A DNA stretch of 64,000 nt from Trueperaceae bacterium (GCA_965215565.1 CBDCDZ010000004.1:1216001-1280000); one strand, 5' to 3'. Shown: positions 1 to 12,004, counted from the stretch's first letter. Numbers and translations: made by a program. The notes: generated by a model from the sequence alone, not told the origin.

Positions 1-111
1 AGAGTGAAAAAAGCAACCTTTTGCCCCTTTTTTGGCAACCCTTTGGCAACCTTTGCTCTTTAAGATAAGAACAAGCCAGGGAAGAAATCCCGGCACGAAA
101 AGGAGAGAATT

Positions 112-240
112 ATGAAAAAGAAGATGCTCGTTGCCCTCACCGTCAGCCTTTTAAGCCTCGGATTCAGCACCAGCGTCGCGGGAAAGTACCAGGGCTCGTC
201 ACCCACGACCGACGGTAGAAGCAACGTCTGGGCTGGCTAA
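112..240 (+). CDS. Small secreted peptide (42 aa, Sec signal peptide plus ~19 aa mature part); absent from the ORF track
   Basis: AGGAGAG RBS before the ATG. MKKKMLVALTVSLLSLGFSTSVA|GKYQGSSPTTDGRSNVWAG has a basic n-region, hydrophobic h-region and small-residue cleavage site. A terminator follows. Confidence 0.75.
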   Translation: MKKKMLVALTVSLLSLGFSTSVAGKYQGSSPTTDGRSNVWAG

Positions 241-267
241 CCCATACAGCATATTTATACGGTAAAC

Positions 268-295
268 AAAGAGCGACCTTAGTAGGTCGCTCTTT
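268..295. terminator. Bidirectional intrinsic terminator
   Basis: AAAGAGCGACC-ttagta-GGTCGCTCTTT between convergent genes. Confidence 0.8.
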
Positions 296-383
296 ATTAG
301 TGGCTCGAGCCTATCGCCGAGCCAGGCCGCTCCGCCTCAACCTCTTCTGGTAGAGACAAAGCGATCAAACACCTCACCGTGGG

Positions 384-1007
384 TCACCGCGCCCTCAAGA
401 CCTCTTCGGTGGGCGTGTCGCCCTCTAAAATCTCAAAGGTTTGACCAATGGTGTTAGGTAGCTCGAGCGCCGCCACGAGCACTCTAGCGACGTCTTCTCT
501 CGTGATGGAGCCCCACTCGTCAAACTGCTCCGCCGCTTTAATCTTCCCCGTCGCCGCGTCGTCGGTGAGTTGTCCTGGGCGGATGATGGTGTAGTCCAAA
601 TCGCCCTTCTGCAGCCGTTCGTCCGCCTCCCCTTTCGCCTCGAGGTAAGGACGTAGCGCCTCGGGTCCGCGCTCTGGGTCGCCCGCGCCCATTGAACTGA
701 GCATCACGAAACGCTTCACACCCTGACGCTCAGCCTCTTCCATGAGCTTGATCGCGCCGTCACGGTCTACGCCTTCAACATCATCACCCGAGGAACCCGC
801 CGCAAAGACGATAGCGTCGCAACCTCTTACGGCGTGCGCCACGTCCTCCGTCAAGTCAGCGACGACGACCTCGGTGCTCGAAGGCTCGAGTTCCGGCACT
901 TGCGCCTCTTCACGCACCATCGCGCGAACTTCATGTTCGCTTTTATTCAGTAACGCCATGATGTGTTGCCCCACTTTTCCATGAGCCCCTGCGACGAGTA
1001 CGCGCAT
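384..1007 (-). CDS. NAD(P)-binding SDR/NmrA-like oxidoreductase
   Basis: N-terminal Rossmann motif GAHGKVG; YLEAK; IRPGQL; RBS AGGAGG. Confidence 0.9.
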   Translation of the reverse strand: MRVLVAGAHGKVGQHIMALLNKSEHEVRAMVREEAQVPELEPSSTEVVVADLTEDVAHAVRGCDAIVFAAGSSGDDVEGVDRDGAIKLMEEAERQGVKRFVMLSSMGAGDPERGPEALRPYLEAKGEADERLQKGDLDYTIIRPGQLTDDAATGKIKAAEQFDEWGSITREDVARVLVAALELPNTIGQTFEILEGDTPTEEVLRAR

Positions 1008-1201
1008 GATTCACCTCCTGAGAATGCCTCACTATAAATGTCTAACCGATACCTGAAAGTGCCTCTAGATGATACAACCCTGCTAAGACCTCTTTGTAAA
1101 CATCAACGCGGTGTGGTCCCGCAAACGTCAAGCAGCACCCAAAATCTGTTCAGGACGTGCGCTATGCTCTAAGTGAAATATTCCACACCGTGAGGAGTCT
1201 T

Positions 1202-2434
1202 ATGAGATTTGTCCTTTGGTTAGGCGTCCTAGTCCTTTTAGGGAGCGTCCACGCGCAAACCATCACTGTCGCAACCCACTATCCGCCCGAAAGCATCGCG
1301 ATTCTGGAGCCCTGTTTCGCCACCTACGAGGAGCAAAACGGCGTTCAGATCGAGCATCAGCAGATCACATACGGCGACTATCTGCAAACGATTTTGACCT
1401 CTCGCCTGGGCGGACAGTCGCCCGACGTGTACCACGTCTACTCCATTTGGGGCGCACAGCTCGTCGAGAACAACATCTTGGCCGAGCCGCCCGAAAACAT
1501 CATCAATTTTGTCCAGAACAGCTATGTGAATAACACGGTCGACGCCGCCACGATTCAGGATCAACTGTGGGGCGTCCCTACCGAGGTCAGCAATTACATG
1601 CTGATTTACAACAAGAAGCTCCTGCAAGAAGCGGGCTTTGAGGAGCCGCCGACTACTTGGGCGGAGGTACAAGAGGTCGCGAAGGCTGCCACGAAGACGA
1701 ACGACCAGGGGCAGATTACCCAAGCGGGCTTTGCGGCAGGCGAGACCACCGCCGAAGTTGTCCACCCCTTCTTGACGCTTCTCTACTCCAAAGGTTTAGA
1801 CCTCTTCACCGAGGACTTCTCCGCGACGAACCTGAACACGCCCGAGGCGTTGGAGGCGCTGCAACAGCAGGTCAGCCTCTTCGAAGAGAACGCCGCCACG
1901 CCAAGCCTGACCGTGGACGACTTCAACAGCGGTCTGGTGGCAATGGAGATTCAACCGGTGTGGTTGGAGTCGCAACTCCAAGCCGCCTTCGGCGATCAGT
2001 TCGAGGAGACCGTGGGCGTCGCGCACATCCCGCAAGGGGAGAACTGGCAGAGCCTCCAGTACGCCTTTTTTTACGCGGTGGATAACAACAGCGACGTGCA
2101 GGACGAGGCGTGGGCGTTCTTGGAGTGGCTCAACACCTCGCAAGCAGAGGGTGAGCCCTCTTGCATGGGGCAGATGCTCGTGGACTTGGGCGCACTGACC
2201 GCGAACCAGACGGACATTCAGAACGCGCAAGAGGAACTCGGCGACTTCTTCACCGCGCCCTTCGTCGAAGCACTGGACCGCTCCATCACCGAGCCCAATG
2301 TGGTGCAGGCGAGCGAGATCGAGCGGATTTTGCAGACCTACATCGAGCGGGCGTGGCGCGGCGAGTTAGCGCCGGAAGAAGCGCTCTCGAGGGCGGACAG
2401 CGAAATCAGCAACATCCTAGCGGAATACTACTAA
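1202..2434 (+). CDS. Carbohydrate ABC transporter substrate-binding protein
   Basis: Signal peptide after GAGGAG RBS; family 1 SBP-like motifs (PDV, LIYNKKLL..AG...PPTTW). Confidence 0.9.
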   Translation: MRFVLWLGVLVLLGSVHAQTITVATHYPPESIAILEPCFATYEEQNGVQIEHQQITYGDYLQTILTSRLGGQSPDVYHVYSIWGAQLVENNILAEPPENIINFVQNSYVNNTVDAATIQDQLWGVPTEVSNYMLIYNKKLLQEAGFEEPPTTWAEVQEVAKAATKTNDQGQITQAGFAAGETTAEVVHPFLTLLYSKGLDLFTEDFSATNLNTPEALEALQQQVSLFEENAATPSLTVDDFNSGLVAMEIQPVWLESQLQAAFGDQFEETVGVAHIPQGENWQSLQYAFFYAVDNNSDVQDEAWAFLEWLNTSQAEGEPSCMGQMLVDLGALTANQTDIQNAQEELGDFFTAPFVEALDRSITEPNVVQASEIERILQTYIERAWRGELAPEEALSRADSEISNILAEYY

Positions 2435-2454
2435 CGCATTGAAACGCACGCCAA

Positions 2455-2483
2455 GAGGTCTCGAGCCCAAACTCGAGACCCTC
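2455..2483. promoter_or_regulatory. Intercistronic stem-loop after the SBP gene
   Basis: GGTCTCGAG-cccaaa-CTCGAGACC inverted repeat. Confidence 0.5.
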
Positions 2484-2574
2484 AACTACACCCTCTTTTG
2501 CCATGTGAATTACCATGTGAACTCACCTCTTTAGAAGACTCGAGCGAGGTCACGCTTATGTCCATCCGTGTATT

Positions 2575-3522
2575 ATGACAACGAAGCCAGCCACCGACGC
2601 GGCAAAAGACGCTAATGTCACCGTAGCGTCTAAACGACGCCCGAAGCGCCGCATTCAACAAAAAGACTGGGCTCCCTATGTCTTTCTCGCGCCTACGTTT
2701 ATCTTTTTCGTTATCTTCTTTCTGCTCCCTATCGGCTTTTCGCTCTACCTCACCTTCACCCGCTGGAACCCGCTCTCCGCGCCGAACTGGATCGGCTTGG
2801 ACAACTTCACCTTCCTCTTTAGCGACGCGACGTTCCTCTTGTCGCTCCGGCATACGCTCGTCTTCGCGTTCGGTACGGTGCTCGTCGGCGTACCGCTGGC
2901 TCTCGTCATCGCCTTCGTTTTTACGCAGAGCCGTTACCGAGCGTTGTGGCGCTCGCTCTTTTTCCTGCCAATGATTACCAACGTCGCCGCCATCGGCTTT
3001 TTGTGGCAGTTCATCTTGGACGGTAACGGCGGGCTCATCAACCGCGTCTTGGGCTGGGTCGGCGTCAATGGACCGAACTGGCTCAGTGACCCGTCCGTGG
3101 CGATGTGGGCGGTCATCATCGTGGCGGTTTGGTACTACATGGGACAAAACATGATTCTCTTCTCGGCGGGGTTAGAGGGAATTGACGATGCGTTTTATAA
3201 CGCAGCCAAGGTAGACGGCGCAAACACCTTGCAGATGTTTTGGCACGTCACCGTGCCGCTGATTCGTCCGACGCTGCTCTTCGTCAGCATCACGAGCTTC
3301 ATCTCCGCGATGGGAGCCTCGTTCGCGCTCATCTTAGTGTTGACCGGAGGCGGTCCGGTGCAGAGCACGAACGTGACCGCGCTCTATATGTACCAGATGG
3401 CCTTTACGGACTTGCGCATGGGCCGTGCGGCGGCGGCAGCGTTTATACTCTTCGTTATTATTTTCCTGATCACGCTGGTGCAACTGCGGATTTTTAGGCG
3501 GGGCGGCATTGAATCTTACTAG
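2575..3522 (+). CDS. Sugar ABC transporter permease (MalF-like)
   Basis: Multiple TM segments; EAA-type loop NAAKVDGA. Confidence 0.92.
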   Translation: MTTKPATDAAKDANVTVASKRRPKRRIQQKDWAPYVFLAPTFIFFVIFFLLPIGFSLYLTFTRWNPLSAPNWIGLDNFTFLFSDATFLLSLRHTLVFAFGTVLVGVPLALVIAFVFTQSRYRALWRSLFFLPMITNVAAIGFLWQFILDGNGGLINRVLGWVGVNGPNWLSDPSVAMWAVIIVAVWYYMGQNMILFSAGLEGIDDAFYNAAKVDGANTLQMFWHVTVPLIRPTLLFVSITSFISAMGASFALILVLTGGGPVQSTNVTALYMYQMAFTDLRMGRAAAAAFILFVIIFLITLVQLRIFRRGGIESY

Positions 3523-3534
3523 AGAGGAATCGCG

Positions 3535-4410
3535 ATGACAAGCAACCGAGTAGGCAGCGTAATCAAATATGCACTTCTTGTGTTGGGCGGCGCGATCATG
3601 CTCCTGCCCTTTTTCGAGATGTTCGTGGGCGCACTGCGCACCCCCGCCGAACGGTTCGCGCAGCCGCCCGTCTTCTGGCCCTCCGACCCGCAGTGGAGCA
3701 TCTATAGAGAGGTCTTTCAAAGTTTGCCTATACAGAAGTGGTACGTCAACAGCGTCATTGTCACGGTCATCATCACCTCTTTGCAGCTCCTAACGAGCAC
3801 GATGGCGGGTTTTGCACTCGCCAAATACCAGTTCTGGGGGCGCAATTGGTTTTTCCGGGGCGTCTTGTCCGCGCAGATGTTTCCCTTTTTCCTCTTTCTC
3901 ATCCCGATGTTTTTCATCATGCGCTTCTTTCCACTAGCGGGTGGCAACGGTATTTTGGGTCAGGGGGGCACGGGGCTTTTAGGGACGTACGCGGCGCTCA
4001 TTCTGCCCTTTCTCATCACCTGGTACGGCATCTTTATGATGCGCCAATTCATGGTGAATATCCCGACGGAACTGCTCGAGGCCGCCCGCATCGACGGTTG
4101 CAGCGAGTTCCGCATCTTCGCGCAGATCGTCCTGCCGCTGGTCAAGCCTGCGCTGGCGACTTTGGGTATCTTCGTCTTCGTCTACCAGTGGAACGAGTTT
4201 ATCTGGACGCTGACCATCACCCGCTCCGCGCCCGAGCTTGAAACGCTGCCCGTCGGCATCTACCTCTTGCGCGGCGCGTTCGGCAACATCGAGGATGAAT
4301 CGCTGCAGCAAGCAGCGTTGGCGGTCAGCACCGTGCCGCTTGCCATCCTCTTTTTGATGTTGCAGCGCTACTACGTCAAAGGGCTCACGATGTCGGGGAT
4401 CAAGGGGTGA
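3535..4410 (+). CDS. Sugar ABC transporter permease (MalG-like)
   Basis: EAARIDG loop; TM segments; QWNEFIW. Confidence 0.92.
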   Translation: MTSNRVGSVIKYALLVLGGAIMLLPFFEMFVGALRTPAERFAQPPVFWPSDPQWSIYREVFQSLPIQKWYVNSVIVTVIITSLQLLTSTMAGFALAKYQFWGRNWFFRGVLSAQMFPFFLFLIPMFFIMRFFPLAGGNGILGQGGTGLLGTYAALILPFLITWYGIFMMRQFMVNIPTELLEAARIDGCSEFRIFAQIVLPLVKPALATLGIFVFVYQWNEFIWTLTITRSAPELETLPVGIYLLRGAFGNIEDESLQQAALAVSTVPLAILFLMLQRYYVKGLTMSGIKG

Positions 4411-5891
4411 CGCTCCGAGTATCACCCAAACTCAGGGAGGTCGCGGCGCACTACAAAGCGGCACTACCCGAGGGGACGTTCTTCCACTTTCCTATTACCG
4501 CGTTCGACGACCTTTTGACCTCCACGGGAGTGCGCGCCTGGACAAGCCTCTTCTTACCCGGTCCGCTGGGCGGCGGTGACGGCTACGGTCTTGGTGACGA
4601 GGAAGCCGAGGTCGGCTCGCTCGGCGAACTGCACGAACGCTTGCAGAGTTTGTGGGTGGTGCCGAAGCTCAAGACCGAACGAGGCTCTTACCACGATTTG
4701 GTCACGACTTATGGTGCGGACGCGGTGGTTGACCCTGTCACGCTCGCTCTGGACGCAGGTTGCGGCTACCACGCGGATATGACCCGTTTTTGGGTCTCTA
4801 TGCAGCGTTACCCGGAAGGTCGCAAATGGGTGCTTTTGGAGGCTGCCGCCTCGAGTCCCGCCGAACTCCCCGAAGGCTACGAACCTCTTTTTCTGCCAGT
4901 TTCCAACGGTCTCGGCGCAGGCCTTAGCGTCACAAGAGGTCTCTGCCACGGCGCTTTAGAGATTTTGCAGCGCGACGGCAACAGCGTGAACTACAGGGCG
5001 CTCGACCAAGGGCGTGTGCTCGACTTCTCGGGCGGTGTGCCCGACACCGCCCGAGAGGTTCTGGGACGTTTGCAGAACGCAGGGCTCACGGTCAACGTCA
5101 AACTCGTCGCGACCGACTTTGGTCTTGTCAACCTCTATGTGAACGGTTATGGACTAAACGACACACCGCAGATCAAACTTGCAGCGGGCGGCGAAGCGTG
5201 CGACTTGGACCGCGCGGCGGCACTCCGTAAAGCGCTTCTGGAGTTTGCCTTTTCAAGAGCACGTCTAGCCTTTAGCCACGGACCTCTTGCAAACGTTGCA
5301 GAGGGTTCACCCGAAGGCTATTTAGAGGCCCACTTTGCCCACGCCCAAAACGTTACCGAGGAGCAAAGAACCCTCGAGACTATGAAACGCTGGCTCGCCC
5401 TATCCCCTGCCGAGTTGAAAGCAGAACTCGAGCCCATCTACGGAGAACGAGAGCGTACCCCTTTTGCCACACTACCCGAACGTCCCGACTTGGCAAACGC
5501 AACCCCTGAAACGCGGCTGCAAGAGGTCGCTGAGCGCTTAAAAGGTTTCGATATTCTGTATCTCGAGCTAGCCACCCCCCGAGCGCAAGAACACGGCGTC
5601 AGAGCGGTCAAAGTGGTGATCCCCGGTTTAGAAGTCGAAACCGCCTCTTACGGGCGCATCGGCGAGCGCAACGTGCGCCGACTCTTGGAGCGAGAGAGCC
5701 CGCTCGTCGGACTAGGCGCACCGCCTCCAGGCGCGAAACGCATTCATTTAACCGAAGCAGCCGAGGCTCGTTTGGGCGATAAGGCTTGGTTTGATGCCAA
5801 AAAACTGAAAGAGGTCGTGGGCAACCTCTACCCTCTCTACCGAGAACCCGCACGACACGCAGTACGCTACGCACTCGGTGAAAAGCCGTAA
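4407..5891 (+). CDS. YcaO-like family protein (atypical motifs)
   Basis: GSLGELHER, SNGLGAG...LEILQRD, ALLEFAFSR, VKVVIPGLE; GTGA overlap with the permease stop. Confidence 0.85.
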   Translation: MTLRVSPKLREVAAHYKAALPEGTFFHFPITAFDDLLTSTGVRAWTSLFLPGPLGGGDGYGLGDEEAEVGSLGELHERLQSLWVVPKLKTERGSYHDLVTTYGADAVVDPVTLALDAGCGYHADMTRFWVSMQRYPEGRKWVLLEAAASSPAELPEGYEPLFLPVSNGLGAGLSVTRGLCHGALEILQRDGNSVNYRALDQGRVLDFSGGVPDTAREVLGRLQNAGLTVNVKLVATDFGLVNLYVNGYGLNDTPQIKLAAGGEACDLDRAAALRKALLEFAFSRARLAFSHGPLANVAEGSPEGYLEAHFAHAQNVTEEQRTLETMKRWLALSPAELKAELEPIYGERERTPFATLPERPDLANATPETRLQEVAERLKGFDILYLELATPRAQEHGVRAVKVVIPGLEVETASYGRIGERNVRRLLERESPLVGLGAPPPGAKRIHLTEAAEARLGDKAWFDAKKLKEVVGNLYPLYREPARHAVRYALGEKP

Positions 5892-5895
5892 AGGA

Positions 5896-6957
5896 ATGGA
5901 CTCAGATGACCTCATTCAAAACGCTGAGAGTTACGCCGAACGTCTCGCCAAGCGCGTCTATTCTAGAGAGGGCGTCGAGATGGTCTTGGCGCTCGAGAAT
6001 CTAAGAGACTCGAGCAAAGAGATACAAGCCAACAAAACGGTTAAAGAAGCAGATGACCTCTTAGCTAACGCGGTCCAAAAGCTCGCGGCGCGTCTTTTGA
6101 CCTCTCGTTTAACGTCTGAGCCCGCCAGGGCCTTGCAGTTGGCGCTCGAGCTAGTCGCTTTTCACGACTTTGGTCAGGACGCTGCACTTCTTGACGTTAC
6201 GCCGCTCGAACGTCGCCGCTTTACCTCTTCAACTTCGGCAGAACCGGAGAACACGCTAGCCTCGGATGGTGACGCGGATACCACATACATTACACGAGCG
6301 CTCCGCAATGGGCGCTTTGTCCGCTCGGTCAACTTTCACAATACGTTTGCTGAGGATAGAGCCAAACTCAGCGCGCAACTCGGGGCGCTTGCAGAGCGAT
6401 TTAAGAGCATCGGCATATCGGATTTGGAGAAGCTCGTAGCAGGCGAACCTTGGACGGATGAGCGTCCGCCCATTTTGCTCGTGTTTTACGAAGGAACGCG
6501 CAACCACGTTGACGTCGCCGCGCCGCTCCTCAGCGAACTAGGCTCAACGGGGATATTCTGCCTTATTCCGGGCTTCATCGACACGCCTATTTCTGAGCAA
6601 GCCAGTTTCGCCGCCGCGCATAAGATCGACGTGGACCCGCTCGAGTACAAAGGCGGACGTCTCGCCATGACCTGGAATGAGGTGCGCGCTCTAGCGGCGC
6701 AAGGTCACGCTTTCACCTGTCACACCATGACGCACGCCGACCCGTACGACGCGGGGAACGATTTGCGGCTCGAGAGCTTGGGCGCGGTAAAGAGGTTGGA
6801 GGACGAGTTGGCTCAAGAGATAACCTCTTTCGTGTGGCAGCGCGGCGTCGCTTGGGGTGCACTGCCTCACGCCGACGCCTACTTGCAAGAGGGCGGTATC
6901 CGCCTCCTCATCAGCGCCGTCAAGGTGACGCGGTTGCCCTTGCCGAACCTCATGTAG
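5896..6957 (+). CDS. Polysaccharide deacetylase (NodB/CE4-like) protein with an N-terminal helical extension
   Basis: VNFHNT, LVFYEG (variant of TFDDG), MTWNEVRAL, CHTMTH. Confidence 0.7.
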   Translation: MDSDDLIQNAESYAERLAKRVYSREGVEMVLALENLRDSSKEIQANKTVKEADDLLANAVQKLAARLLTSRLTSEPARALQLALELVAFHDFGQDAALLDVTPLERRRFTSSTSAEPENTLASDGDADTTYITRALRNGRFVRSVNFHNTFAEDRAKLSAQLGALAERFKSIGISDLEKLVAGEPWTDERPPILLVFYEGTRNHVDVAAPLLSELGSTGIFCLIPGFIDTPISEQASFAAAHKIDVDPLEYKGGRLAMTWNEVRALAAQGHAFTCHTMTHADPYDAGNDLRLESLGAVKRLEDELAQEITSFVWQRGVAWGALPHADAYLQEGGIRLLISAVKVTRLPLPNLM

Positions 6958-7113
6958 CGATACTTCCTATGGTCCCCGCAGTGCCTTCTTACACAACCCT
7001 TATACCTCGCCGCTAAAATCCTAATATACTAGGTGGGTTTGGCGCTGCGGATGCGCCGCTGTGGTTTCGCCGGGTCAACCCGGCGAGAACCGCAAAGAAG
7101 GGATTGTATAGGT

Positions 7114-8070
7114 ATGGACCCGATTATGATTCAACTGGGACCGCTCGCGGTCCGCTGGTACGGCTTTTTGATCGCGTTAGGCGTGCTGATTGGCTCGAGC
7201 TGGGCGCTGAGAGAAGCGGAGCGGCGCAATCTTGATACGGAGAAGCTTTTAGATATGACCCTGTGGCTCGTTGTCGCAGGTCTTATCGGCGCGCGCCTCA
7301 TCTACGTCATCACGAGCCCGAGCGCGTACTTCGGACCGAACGGCAACCCCTTAAACGCCTTCGCGATTTGGCAGGGCGGCGGCAGTATTCACGGGGGCGT
7401 GTTGGGTATTTTCGTCGCAGTCTGGATTTACTCGCGCATCCATAACCTCAACATGTGGTCCTATCTGGACACGCTCGCGCCGGTGGGCGCACTGGGTGTC
7501 ATTGGCGGGCGCATCGGCAACTTCATGAACGGCTCGGACACCACCGGACGCTTGACGGGCTGGCCCATCGGCTATACTTGGCCGGAGCCGGGCACGGACA
7601 CCTTCGGCGCGTTCGGGCGTTTCTTCTTCGGCGACAACTTGTGGGCAGCGTATCCGGGGACGTGTAGTATCTCGGGCGTCAGCCTCTCGCAGTGTATCCA
7701 ACAGGGCGGCGAAATCCTGCGCGGACCTGTTCACCTCACGCAGATTTACGGCGCGGTCATCGGCGTCATCTTAGTCGGTATCGTCTGGTGGTCGTTTCGC
7801 AGGAGCCGCACGCCGGGCTTCGCTTGGTGGCAGTTCATCTTGTGGTACTCGGTCTTGCGCTCGGTCCTCGAGGAGCCTTTCCGCGACAACCCGCTCTTCT
7901 GGCAGGTCTACCTCTCCGAAGGCGTCAATGCGCCGGGCGTAGGTCTCTTCACGCTGACGCAGCTCGTCAGCATCCCGCTGGTGCTCATCTCCGTGTACTT
8001 CCTCCTTATCTTGAACCCCGACGAGGTGGAGAAAAAAGAGCGGCTTTCGATGAAGGCGAGAGGTCGCTGA
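7114..8070 (+). CDS. lgt: Prolipoprotein diacylglyceryl transferase
   Basis: VRWYG, GARLIYV, IWQGGGSIHGG, GRIGNFMNG, HLTQIY. Confidence 0.95.
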   Translation: MDPIMIQLGPLAVRWYGFLIALGVLIGSSWALREAERRNLDTEKLLDMTLWLVVAGLIGARLIYVITSPSAYFGPNGNPLNAFAIWQGGGSIHGGVLGIFVAVWIYSRIHNLNMWSYLDTLAPVGALGVIGGRIGNFMNGSDTTGRLTGWPIGYTWPEPGTDTFGAFGRFFFGDNLWAAYPGTCSISGVSLSQCIQQGGEILRGPVHLTQIYGAVIGVILVGIVWWSFRRSRTPGFAWWQFILWYSVLRSVLEEPFRDNPLFWQVYLSEGVNAPGVGLFTLTQLVSIPLVLISVYFLLILNPDEVEKKERLSMKARGR

Positions 8071-8071
8071 G

Positions 8072-8803
8072 TTGCACTTAGCAGTCGTAATTTTAGCGGC
8101 GGGTCAGGGCACGCGGATGAAGTCTGACCTGCCCAAAGTGCTCCACAAAGCGGCGGGGCACTCGCTTGTGGAGCACGTTATTAAGGCGGTTACGCCGTTA
8201 GAACCCGAACACATCGTCGTCGTAACGGGGTACAAAGCGGAAGAGGTCGAAGCGGAGCTAGCCGACGAGCCCATCAAGTTCGCCCGTCAGACGGAGCAGT
8301 TGGGCACAGGGCACGCACTTCTGCAAACAAAAGAGGTGTTGCAGGGGTTCGGCGGCGCGGTGATGGTCTTAAATGGCGACGGACCGCTTCTTAAAACGGA
8401 GACGCTAGAAAAGTTAGCGCGAACGCAGCAAGACTCAGGCGCAGGTATGACTTTAGTCACATGTGATGTGAGCGACCCGCAAGGTCTAGGGCGCATCATC
8501 CGCAAGGAAGACGGCAGCGTCGCCAAAATTGTCGAGGAGAAAGACGCAACGGATGAAGAGCGCCGGGTAAACGAAATCAATCCTGGTATCTATATTTTTG
8601 ACAAGAGCGTCCTCGAGATTGCCGAAGGGCTCTCCAACGACAATGCCGCAGGCGAATACTACATCACCGATTTGGTGGACCTCTACTTGCAAGCGGGGCG
8701 CAGTGTGCAGGCGGTTGTGGCGGAGGACGAGACGGAGATTTTGGCGGTGAACGACCGGGAGCAGCTTGCGGCGGTGGAGCGGATTTTGCAAGCTCGAGAT
8801 TGA
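8072..8803 (+). CDS. glmU: GlmU-type nucleotidyltransferase, N-terminal domain only
   Basis: LAAGQGTRMKSDLPKVLH, EQLGTGHA, IVEEKDA, GEYYITD; stops at 243 aa with no beta-helix acetyltransferase domain. Confidence 0.8.
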   Translation: MHLAVVILAAGQGTRMKSDLPKVLHKAAGHSLVEHVIKAVTPLEPEHIVVVTGYKAEEVEAELADEPIKFARQTEQLGTGHALLQTKEVLQGFGGAVMVLNGDGPLLKTETLEKLARTQQDSGAGMTLVTCDVSDPQGLGRIIRKEDGSVAKIVEEKDATDEERRVNEINPGIYIFDKSVLEIAEGLSNDNAAGEYYITDLVDLYLQAGRSVQAVVAEDETEILAVNDREQLAAVERILQARD

Positions 8804-8858
8804 GTGATGGTGTCTGCCCTAATTGAACAATTATTTGGAGGAGCAAAATCGTTCAACG

Positions 8859-9605
8859 TTAGAGACGCTGATTGTTCTCTACTTCAAACAACGATTGGTC
8901 CACAGGTTGATTGAAGAGGTAGCGTTGACGCTGGTCTGAGAAGAGAAAACCCTCTTCCTTCCACGCTGTATATATCCTTGTTGTAACGTCCATCTGCAGA
9001 CCATTTGGAGCAACCTCGATGTCATAAAGAATAATGTCATCATCGGATAGGAATCCGTCGTTGACAACTGCGGCAAGAGGTTTGCCCAGCACATCAAAGA
9101 TAAATTTTCCCTCTGCATTCCCATTAAATAGCGTCGTATAGCGCAGCGTTACTTGTTCACCTTCAACAGCGTCGCCGTACCTCTTGAAACCGTCGTAGCT
9201 AACGATATTGTAGTCTTTAGGGATAACACCGAAACCTCCCTGCAACCGAGCTGAAAGCTCCTCCGCAATACCCCAAGAACCATCCCGGTAAGTTTTTGTG
9301 TATCCCGCTATCTCCATGCTCGTCACACCGTCAACATAGCGAAGGACAAATTCAACGTCATCGCTTTCAGCTTCGATGTACAAGCGCTGGCGTAAGAGGT
9401 CGATAACTCTGTGAGTCTTTTCTGGTCCCTCTTCAATAGTAGAGGTTTGTTTTGTAGACGTAACGTCGATAGTACGAAGGGGTGGCAAAGCGCGCGCTGC
9501 GGACCCAAGCAGCTCCTCAGCTCGCTCTAATTCCTGCGCACCTGCACTTGCAGTCAAGATTAGGATCAAACTCAAAAGGATCGTTTTCACGTCAAAAGCC
9601 TCCAA
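8859..9605 (-). CDS. Exported hypothetical protein (lower GC than neighbours)
   Basis: Long ORF with a signal peptide; no recognised family. Confidence 0.65.
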   Translation of the reverse strand: MEAFDVKTILLSLILILTASAGAQELERAEELLGSAARALPPLRTIDVTSTKQTSTIEEGPEKTHRVIDLLRQRLYIEAESDDVEFVLRYVDGVTSMEIAGYTKTYRDGSWGIAEELSARLQGGFGVIPKDYNIVSYDGFKRYGDAVEGEQVTLRYTTLFNGNAEGKFIFDVLGKPLAAVVNDGFLSDDDIILYDIEVAPNGLQMDVTTRIYTAWKEEGFLFSDQRQRYLFNQPVDQSLFEVENNQRL

Positions 9606-11065: not shown

Positions 11066-12004
11066 TCAAGCCCCCTTCCACCTCTGTGGGTGCTGCTGAG
11101 TGACTTGCAGCATGAAACGAAAGAGTTCTCTTGCGAGATAGGTTTTGAGACTTCTTAGAGCAGCCCGGCGGGTCTTGCCTTGCTGCTGTTTCTTGTCGAG
11201 ATAGGCTCTTGTCGGTTCGCTGTGGCGCAGTCTGACTTGGGCAATCATGTGAAAGGTGCGGTTGAGCCGACGGTTGCCGCCGATGTTGAGTTGCCTTCTC
11301 TTCTGACCACCAGAAGAGCGCTCGACAGGCGCACAACCTGAATACATGGCAAAGGCGTGTTGTGAACGAAAGCGTCGGATGTCACCTGCTTCAGCAAGTA
11401 GCGTGGCGGCGTGAACGACGCCGACGCCAAAGACCTCTAAGAGTTCAGGCATCAGTTCGTCAACGAGGGCTTTCATCGCCTGCTCGAGCGTCTTGAGTTG
11501 TTCTTTAAGCACTGCAATAACGGCTTCGACGGCTTGGCGAGCCACCTCTAGCTCAAGGCTCGCTAAGCTCAGCTTGTGCGCTGTAAGCTGTTTAGCTAGC
11601 GCTTCTCGGGTGCGGGTCAGATGTTTGAGGTCTTCAACCGCTTGCCGAGGTGCAAACGTAGTCAGCTCAGGATTAGCCAAAGCAGCCCGAGCTACGTTTT
11701 CAGCGTCTACCTCATCACTCTTCTTGCGTCCTCTTTTGCTGCGGTACTGACTCGTCAGACTCGGACTAATGTCCACAACCTTATGGTCCTGCCCGAGCAA
11801 CGCTTGACTCAACCTCCGAGCAAAGGGGTTATTCGCCCCTTCAATAGCGCACCGCTGAACGTCATAGCGCTTTATCCAGTGCTCCAAAGTTGCCAAGCCC
11901 TCAGCCGTATTCGTAACGGTGCAGTGACCTAATACCTTGCCCTGTTTATCTAACGCTGCTGCGGTATGGCTCTGCGGATGTGGATCAACCCCTATAATGA
12001 CCAT
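11066..12004 (-). CDS. IS110 DEDD recombinase/transposase
   Basis: IIGVD, AIEG, KSDEVDA, C-terminal SSG and GGNRRLN; AAGGAGG RBS. Confidence 0.95.
   Translation of the reverse strand: MVIIGVDPHPQSHTAAALDKQGKVLGHCTVTNTAEGLATLEHWIKRYDVQRCAIEGANNPFARRLSQALLGQDHKVVDISPSLTSQYRSKRGRKKSDEVDAENVARAALANPELTTFAPRQAVEDLKHLTRTREALAKQLTAHKLSLASLELEVARQAVEAVIAVLKEQLKTLEQAMKALVDELMPELLEVFGVGVVHAATLLAEAGDIRRFRSQHAFAMYSGCAPVERSSGGQKRRQLNIGGNRRLNRTFHMIAQVRLRHSEPTRAYLDKKQQQGKTRRAALRSLKTYLARELFRFMLQVTQQHPQRWKGA

Follow-up and report, generated by a model that had tools for sequence, protein, structure and literature searches.

The stretch analyzed here, called the window, comprises 64,000 nucleotides from a Trueperaceae bacterium (GCA_965215565.1, CBDCDZ010000004.1:1216001-1280000; genome G000), and positions are counted from its first letter. 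Near its start, five genes on the plus strand combine a sugar importer with a stand-alone YcaO protein and a polysaccharide deacetylase-like protein, hereafter the CE4-like protein. The first gene (1202..2434) encodes a CUT1-type sugar-binding protein with a signal-peptide-like N-terminus (SBP_bac_1, 99.9 bits in Pfam). It is followed by two carbohydrate ATP-binding cassette (ABC) permease genes, both of the BPD_transp_1 family, the first (2575..3522) assigned by Pfam with a UgpA/MalF-like match under cut-off and the second (3535..4410) by Pfam and NCBIfam. The fourth gene (4407..5891) codes for the 494-aa YcaO protein, which belongs to a subfamily marked by LQRDGN and LYREPxxH motifs, and the last gene (5896..6957) for a protein of 353 aa that matches Polysacc_deac_1 in its C-terminal half only (26.9 bits, cut-off 23.1). 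The latter protein consists of a small N-terminal domain of ~95 aa (5896..6180), recognized by a profile of stand-alone open reading frames (ORFs), and of a PgaB/IcaB-type (NodB2) CE4 domain (6307..6957) with the motifs NFH, FYEG and HTxxH.

These coordinates and identities bear out a sequence-only reading of the window, including the GTGA overlap of the second permease gene with ycaO (4407-4410) and the spacer of 4 nt (5892-5895) before the CE4-like gene, for which an alternative in-frame GTG start exists at 5878. The same reading had treated all five genes as a single run. However, a hairpin-bearing gap of 140 nt follows the gene of the binding protein, and no ABC ATPase gene is present in the run; MalK-like genes are found elsewhere in G000. 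Folding of the gap (2435-2574) gives -35.3 kcal/mol (z -2.6), which was equalled by 2/200 shuffled sequences, and its stem-loop (2455..2483, plus strand) is likely an mRNA-stabilizing or attenuating hairpin. Rfam yielded no match within positions 1-9000, hairpin included, and a promoter/terminator scan returned counts no better than chance. The flanking genes are parts of separate units; one encodes, on the opposite strand, an NAD(P)-binding protein, and the other is lgt.

The YcaO protein and its subfamily

The only YcaO of G000 falls within the YcaO superfamily by profile (PF02624, 129 bits, cut-off 25.7) as well as by fold (AlphaFold2 model with a predicted local distance difference test score, pLDDT, of 93). 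Among the matches listed, its closest named relatives are from Trueperaceae; in the ESM Atlas it matched generic YcaO clusters. It remains under all three NCBIfam cut-offs, i.e. TIGR03604 (82.7/219 bits), TIGR03266 (46/365) and TIGR00702 (43/76), and because of the latter two scores it is not considered an orthologue of the McrA- or uL16-type protein-modifying YcaOs. The nearest solved fold is Methanocaldococcus jannaschii YcaO (6PEU; VIA Z 32.7, root mean square deviation 3.0 over 359 residues; Foldseek E 2.6e-16). Like other stand-alone YcaOs (MJ1094, 6PE3/6PEU; M. kandleri, 6CI7; E. coli YcaO), the window protein has neither a fusion to E1 or to a recognition element (RRE) nor an adjacent precursor, and it shares with them the fold, four acidic ATP/Mg positions, the NG motif and RD. 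However, it is ~20% identical to the methanogen and E. coli proteins and differs from them by a C-terminal extension of ~60 residues with YREPxxH, by its sugar-enzyme neighbours and by the absence of TfuA. The fold is also common to LynD, TruD, McbD, AmiD and MusD (Z 21-26), but unlike these YcaOs of ribosomally made peptides with post-translational modifications (RiPPs), no precursor family, E1/ocin-ThiF or dehydrogenase was found for the window subfamily.

Conservation was assessed in 202 aligned YcaO sequences, a redundant set, with positions mapped to M. jannaschii YcaO (MjYcaO) by hidden Markov model alignment; the canonical ATP/Mg motifs are given their customary names and residue roles. 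The residues E74, E77, N167-G168, E185, R189, D190, E279 and R284 are kept in 196-202 of the 202 sequences. Several further positions are changed, yet near-invariant: Q188 (201/202) replaces the second Glu of ExxERD, K275 (201/202) an Arg and Y60 (195/202) the Lys of GKG, while a canonical Gln is lost and Arg78 is variable. Q188 is also present in all 54 near-full-length representatives of 50% clusters that served as distant check set. The altered motifs EILQRD and EFAFSR, which the sequence-only reading had pointed out together with FYEG and HTMTH of the CE4-like protein, are all present in the window proteins, and those of YcaO are invariants of the subfamily rather than signs of decay. As to EFAFSR in place of ExxQSR, it is the loss of Gln that is conserved and not the Phe, which is replaced by Ala in 129/202 sequences. 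Likewise, the reported lack of a PxP tail holds for the C-terminus proper, PxP being terminal in 2/202 subfamily sequences, but a near-invariant YREP fills the same place in the model. Indeed, Y478-R479-E480-P481 and H484 are almost invariant across the 202 sequences, and the structural alignments to LynD, TruD and McbD stop where model residues 478-480 meet the C-terminal residue of the respective chain, as judged from the range ends only. The terminal carboxylate of McbD is the proposed general base in the available text of PMC6395948. As E480 is aligned to this C-terminus in the model, it could act as general base in the window YcaO, which we take as a lead.

Genomic contexts of the subfamily

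At least 525 YcaO relatives were confirmed when each species was scanned through a single genome, and the cluster counts given below refer to the 79 listed loci, among them one from an unpublished genome (L013). Cluster genes were called with profiles derived from these loci and named via Pfam/NCBIfam; some loci end at contig ends. The sequence-only reading had proposed a YcaO acting outside RiPP pathways on a sugar-type molecule. The genomic context gives this proposal strong support, whereas details of the layout, the deacetylase and the PxP tail had to be corrected: a conserved cyclitol/GT4/PIG-L cluster surrounds ycaO in 70/79 loci and no precursor was found. Besides YcaO, the cluster comprises a cyclase, which is an inositol-phosphate synthase (55 loci) or a dehydroquinate synthase (DHQS)-like protein (7), a GT4 glycosyltransferase (67), a Gfo/Idh/MocA oxidoreductase (66), a PIG-L protein (63), an HD protein (62), a TIM barrel protein (58), a methyltransferase (53) and a metallo-beta-lactamase (MBL)-fold protein (22). 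Outside the Methylobacterium group it occurs in Myxococcota, Rubrobacteraceae, Armatimonadota, Planctomycetota, Skermanella, Acetobacteraceae and Alcaligenaceae. In Hymenobacter and Roseomonas, copies on plasmids have an identical gene order with no precursor in the NCBI annotation, one of them being coupled gene to gene. Fusions of YcaO to the MBL protein (7 cases) and to PIG-L (one case) occur within the 150 top-ranking cluster representatives, hence YcaO repeatedly pairs with metal hydrolase folds. Apparent TIM- and Gfo-YcaO fusions (P0271, P0286, P0300, P0292) are fragmentary, possibly read-through artefacts, and were left uncounted.

The early steps of mycothiol and bacillithiol synthesis (Ino1, MshA/BshA, MshB/BshB) likewise employ an inositol-phosphate synthase, a GT4 enzyme and a PIG-L protein. 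However, the cluster enzymes do not come near the equivalog cut-offs, a cysteine ligase was not seen in the cluster and the window module has none of these genes. Beyond the mycothiol set, the cluster contains the HD, methyltransferase, Gfo, MBL, TIM and YcaO genes. The DHQS-like cyclase of the 7 loci is close (509 bits) to the cyclase of an ebo-type cluster in G000 (C4:741439-747908), located ~475 kb from the window. In contrast to the cluster described here, the ebo operon is without a YcaO gene and includes genes for UbiA, a TatD-like protein and a phosphodiesterase, and EboD forms a separate cyclase clade according to the accessible part of PMC5133447.

Some clusters carry paralogous ycaO genes, two in L023, L027, L030, L056, L057, L061, L014 and L015 and three in L011; these are from Armatimonadota and some Myxococcaceae, and the Armatimonadota pair falls in two separate clades. 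A membrane gene resembling lysyl-phosphatidylglycerol (LPG) synthases and MprF flippases follows the cluster in 36/79 loci, namely in Methylobacterium loci (e.g. L038:15221-16459), and may represent an exporter or a link to lipids. Spore photoproduct lyase genes flank the cluster on a Roseomonas plasmid (L170:15813-17934) and in G444 (L198:18863-19900), two cases that provide a weak hint at a role in ultraviolet or desiccation stress. Methylobamine, which contains galactopyranose, pyranooxazine and iminoacetic acid parts according to the available text of PMC13567104, is a lead only for the product of the Methylobacterium cluster, as no gene link was found between the two.

The layout of the module, i.e. 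importer, YcaO and deacetylase-like gene, was recovered elsewhere too, albeit as a minority form. Biosynthetic genes are absent from 9/79 loci, of which seven have a CE4-like gene beside ycaO and two (L009, L013) a divergent importer alone. In Deinococcota the subfamily is present in 9/364 genomes, all from Trueperaceae; the CE4-like gene is directly downstream in 9/9, with the importer as a neighbour in 6. These frequencies argue that the linkage did not arise by chance. Of 104 Rubrobacteraceae genomes of unstated completeness, 19 possess a subfamily member, 11 of the cluster type, 8 of the CE4 type and 0 of both; permease genes are adjacent in 6/8 of the CE4-type genomes. An orthologue of the window binding protein is present in 12/12 CE4-positive Trueperaceae vs 3/116 others, genomes that are kin. 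The HD gene of the cluster was detected in 0/128 Trueperaceae and in 3/3 cluster genomes used as control; 49 of the 128 have a completeness <90% or a contamination >5%.

The window binding protein is 55-63% identical to those of loci L141, L143, L144 and L146 and 21-24% to the Rubrobacter ones. Its best relatives in the PDB are sugar-binding proteins with E 1e-23 or weaker and point to no particular ligand. The binding proteins of Trueperaceae, Rubrobacter and Thermomicrobiales share <=24% identity over long alignments and are not orthologous, so that the link between YcaO and a sugar importer recurs with different importers. Far from being unique to this genome, the ABC linkage is thus found in Trueperaceae, Rubrobacteraceae and Chloroflexota. 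In a quick tree of 67 rows, which included L013 and from which 33 Methylobacterium-group loci were left out, the CE4-linked YcaOs fall into two clades with good support, between which cluster-type proteins are placed (minimum number of changes forced, 2). The import-type proteins share the invariant residues of the cluster-type YcaOs. The module of importer, YcaO and CE4-like protein is real and conserved. It is apparently also undescribed: no description of cluster or module was found in the published literature searched, which did not extend to subscription papers and most supplements, and supplements of YcaO network studies may list these YcaO proteins.

The module could also be conceived as a relict or an accidental assembly, in which a YcaO left over from a lost cluster, maybe catalytically weak, sits between an importer and a CE4 gene whose substrate it does not share. 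In fact, importer and CE4 gene are each found without ycaO, several canonical ATP-site residues are changed, and the ycaO gene of G019 (L141:9275-10763) is split across two reading frames by a frameshift or an assembly error. We nevertheless regard this as very improbable: the changed residues are near-invariant down to the distant representatives, and the YcaO-CE4 adjacency extends from all 9 Deinococcota to 8 Rubrobacteraceae genomes and 10/33 metagenomic CE4 loci, i.e. to two clades with different importers.

A different possibility is that YcaO introduces a thioamide, amidine or azoline into a peptide or folded protein encoded elsewhere, the sugar genes serving glycosylation, supply or export. 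The nearest solved fold is that of a protein-modifying enzyme, and E. coli YcaO acts, without a nearby precursor, on the unlinked folded protein uL16 (available text of PMC13063428). In the case of streptamidine, precursors are mostly unannotated short ORFs and AmiD also adjoins hydrolase and ABC genes (available text of PMC8442711). Short ORFs were searched within 8 kb at 92 YcaO loci, some fetched twice. However, among 2498 intergenic ORFs of 20-120 aa just two cross-taxon pairs appeared at E 1e-3, and both resemble off-frame shadows of known genes. TfuA was detected in 0/5 Trueperaceae including G000, the M. acetivorans control being positive, and in 1/5 other genomes, there ~3 Mb from the cluster and unlinked. 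Homologues are therefore not consistently encoded with a precursor or TfuA, and Pfam and NCBIfam detected no E1/ThiF, TfuA or dehydrogenase across the five window proteins, as the sequence-only reading had stated. Moreover, the fusion partners of YcaO are MBL and PIG-L proteins rather than E1/RRE domains. Taking both sides together, we consider a peptide or protein substrate encoded elsewhere quite unlikely. By the features tested, the window YcaO is a superfamily member outside the RiPP azoline class (no E1/ocin-ThiF, precursor or terminal PxP) and outside the TfuA class (no adjacent tfuA), with a fair chance of representing a new substrate class.

One secreted-type ORF of 42 aa in the window (112-240, plus strand) would speak for a peptide substrate. 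It has a strong ribosome-binding site and a signal-peptide-like start and ends in GRSNVWAG, while its relative at a single same-genus locus ends in GRSSAWGG. It was rejected as precursor, as its octamer is shared with an S8 protease and the same-genus match remained the only one. The divergent S8 protease gene lies just upstream of the window beside a TPR + HD-domain gene (G000 C4:1212103-1215587, equal to L167:9104-12588; minus strand) and encodes four tandem copies of GRSNVWAG. Together, ORF and protease look like a peptide-signalling unit.

The CE4-like protein and the YcaO-free catabolic form

The model of the CE4-like protein (pLDDT 88) resembles PgaB (Foldseek E 6e-10) and PplD, IcaB and PgaB (VIA Z 20.5, 19.2 and 18.6, respectively). 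A PDB sequence search with the protein returned nothing below E 0.7, so the fold is known from the model only. With the PgaB/IcaB/BpsB and PplD group it shares the N-terminal motif-5 His, the motif-2 HTxxH and an acidic metal ligand. Accordingly, the NodB2 fold with the His-His-Asp metal triad and motif-5 His that characterizes the CE4 family was found, and the residues concerned are invariant among 42 family members (H148, H276, H280 and E/D199, each 42/42). The tandem Asp of motif 1 is missing, however. The first of these two Asp residues is the base. Position 198, which it would occupy, holds Tyr in 36, Phe in 5 and Asp in 1 of the 42 members, while canonical CE4 enzymes have two tandem Asp, one of them catalytic, in motif 1 (available text of PMC10967932). 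Further differences from PgaB-type enzymes are FxWxxG instead of AYPYG in motif 3, the additional N-terminal domain, the lack of an evident signal peptide and the absence of a polysaccharide synthase nearby. Hence the NodB-like deacetylase of the sequence-only reading retains its fold and metal ligands, but ordinary de-N-acetylation is doubtful for a family that lacks the first motif 1 Asp and carries an extra domain of ~100 aa.

In a survey of 33 metagenomic CE4 loci, the neighbours were YcaO (10), GH4/IolB-like genes or the small domain (8) and a carbamoyltransferase (10), the other 5 lying elsewhere. The carbamoyltransferase-linked sisters (L096, L098-L100, L103, L105, L106, L108, L111, L119) keep FDDG in 9/10 loci, one not being parsed, which indicates that loss of the Asp marks the importer-linked branch. 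The profile of the small domain, made from 10 stand-alone ORFs, matches the window protein with E 1.4e-7. The family occurs either fused in front of the CE4-like domain or as a separate ORF of ~95-135 aa in catabolic clusters (10 cases, e.g. L143:8948-9340) and shares the motif RxYNxEG[IV]PM[FY]LxLED; for the stand-alone form, Pfam and NCBIfam gave no match and the ESM Atlas none that was usable. In L092/L114, GH4, small domain and CE4 seemed to form a triple fusion, which was dismissed because GH4 is in a different frame. Stand-alone genes for the small domain-CE4 protein, unlinked to other parts, are present in two Rubrobacteraceae that have the biosynthetic cluster (L165:10170-11237, L166:10390-11418).

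The catabolic clusters just mentioned, apparently undescribed as well, lack ycaO and combine importer, small ORF, two Asp-less CE4 genes and GH4 (L143:5753-19064, L144, L146, L145, L093, L116). In G055, G340 and G044 the importer is orthologous to that of the window (binding protein 55-60% identical; both window permeases ~70% identical to those of L143). The coupling of importer and YcaO is thus recurrent, but the importer also exists without YcaO, in such clusters or alone. Accompanying genes encode GH4, an IolB/KduI-like isomerase, an IlvD-type dehydratase, a SIS sugar deaminase-like protein, a PfkB kinase, a 2-hydroxyacid dehydrogenase and a DeoR regulator, with a class II aldolase added in G044; variants are found in G137, L093 and L116. 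No ycaO gene was found in the four catabolic-form genomes (G055, G340, G044, G137). Conversely, orthologues of the catabolic GH4 were detected in 3/128 Trueperaceae and in none of the 9 genomes with YcaO. G000 has no orthologue of the catabolic GH4, IolB, SIS and PfkB genes, and G000, G001 and G002 are without an IolB-like gene. IolB was counted in 81/128 Trueperaceae, a number that includes one unpublished genome (G035) and on which no conclusion rests. The catabolic gene set would fit breakdown of an aminosugar linked to an inositol-like ring, i.e. of the parts that the biosynthetic cluster appears to join.

These clusters raise the possibility that the window module is a catabolic entry as well, in which the same glycoside enters through the importer and YcaO, replacing the second CE4 protein, cleaves a resistant amide or amidine at the expense of ATP, so that sugar or nitrogen feeds growth. 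The shared importer, small domain and CE4 proteins are consistent with this, and so are the Rubrobacter YcaO-CE4 loci, which lie in a catabolic setting of GH1, GH5, GH2 and aldo-keto reductase genes. There is also a precedent in MusD, which hydrolyses a peptide amide with ATP (available text of PMC10885120). On the other hand, the distribution of GH4 and IolB-like genes described above does not agree with it, and YcaOs of the window type retain the invariants of the biosynthetic copies. Furthermore, the GH4 of L052 is just 28% identical to the catabolic GH4. GH1, GH2 and GH5 enzymes cleave beta links while GT4 products are alpha. Hence, a catabolic role of the YcaO module appears unlikely.

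Proposed role of the module

G000 has an intact ycaO gene, yet it lacks both the synthesis genes and the catabolic orthologues, which favours import followed by finishing of a compound. We therefore propose, with a probability of roughly 0.45, that the window encodes a salvage module for an N-acyl-aminosugar–cyclitol, which would be imported and then completed through activation of an amide with ATP. The importer would take up such a glycoside made by bacteria possessing the full cluster, and opening or removal of an acyl group would fall to the CE4-like protein. YcaO with ATP would then phosphorylate the amide oxygen, and a neighbouring amine or hydroxyl would close an amidine or oxazoline. 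Phosphorylation of the amide oxygen following nucleophilic attack is the chemistry ascribed to YcaO enzymes in the available text of PMC13063428. The simplest reading of the three contexts with shared parts is that they belong to bacteria that produce, salvage or degrade a single family of compounds. We infer this common compound family as well as the reaction's direction, the order in which the enzymes act and Glu480 as base; that the substrate is not a peptide is probable.

Several observations weigh against the salvage proposal. The published YcaO enzymes act on peptides or proteins as far as the available texts go, E. coli YcaO with its distant uL16 substrate included, and the latter enzyme is incompletely active when its ATP-binding residues are replaced (PMC13063428, available text), while the conserved Glu of ExxERD is a Gln in the window YcaO. 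The importer stands by itself in G025 and G034 and is located elsewhere in the genome, unlinked from YcaO-CE4, in 3/9 Deinococcota. Two CE4 genes are often found in clusters without ycaO versus one in YcaO loci, as if YcaO had replaced a hydrolase, and the glycosidase neighbours in Rubrobacter represent a catabolic setting. Finally, 40 of the 70 cluster loci are from the Methylobacterium group and, as kin, not independent.

On a broader and somewhat more tentative view, the subfamily as a whole might act on sugars, an aminosugar–cyclitol being closed to an amidine or oxazoline by use of the internal Glu of YREP where other YcaOs have a C-terminal carboxylate. This metabolite, widespread and undescribed, would have producer, salvager and degrader guilds, with the producers in Pseudomonadota, Myxococcota, Actinomycetota, Armatimonadota, Planctomycetota and Bacteroidota, and the Asp-less CE4 proteins might be a new type of hydrolase for the group made by YcaO. 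If true, such a subfamily would extend a chemistry that has already been studied well, and genome miners would be mislabelling such loci as RiPP clusters. To the biosynthetic cluster, the window adds a dedicated binding protein as well as catabolic genes that match. The former could be used as bait for the metabolite in extracts of producers such as Methylobacterium or Corallococcus, whereas the latter predict its parts; together they make an orphan, phylum-spanning pathway directly testable.

Downstream of the module and on the minus strand, the window contains an ORF of 312 aa (11066-12004), which we take to be a transposase of the IS110 family by its motifs.

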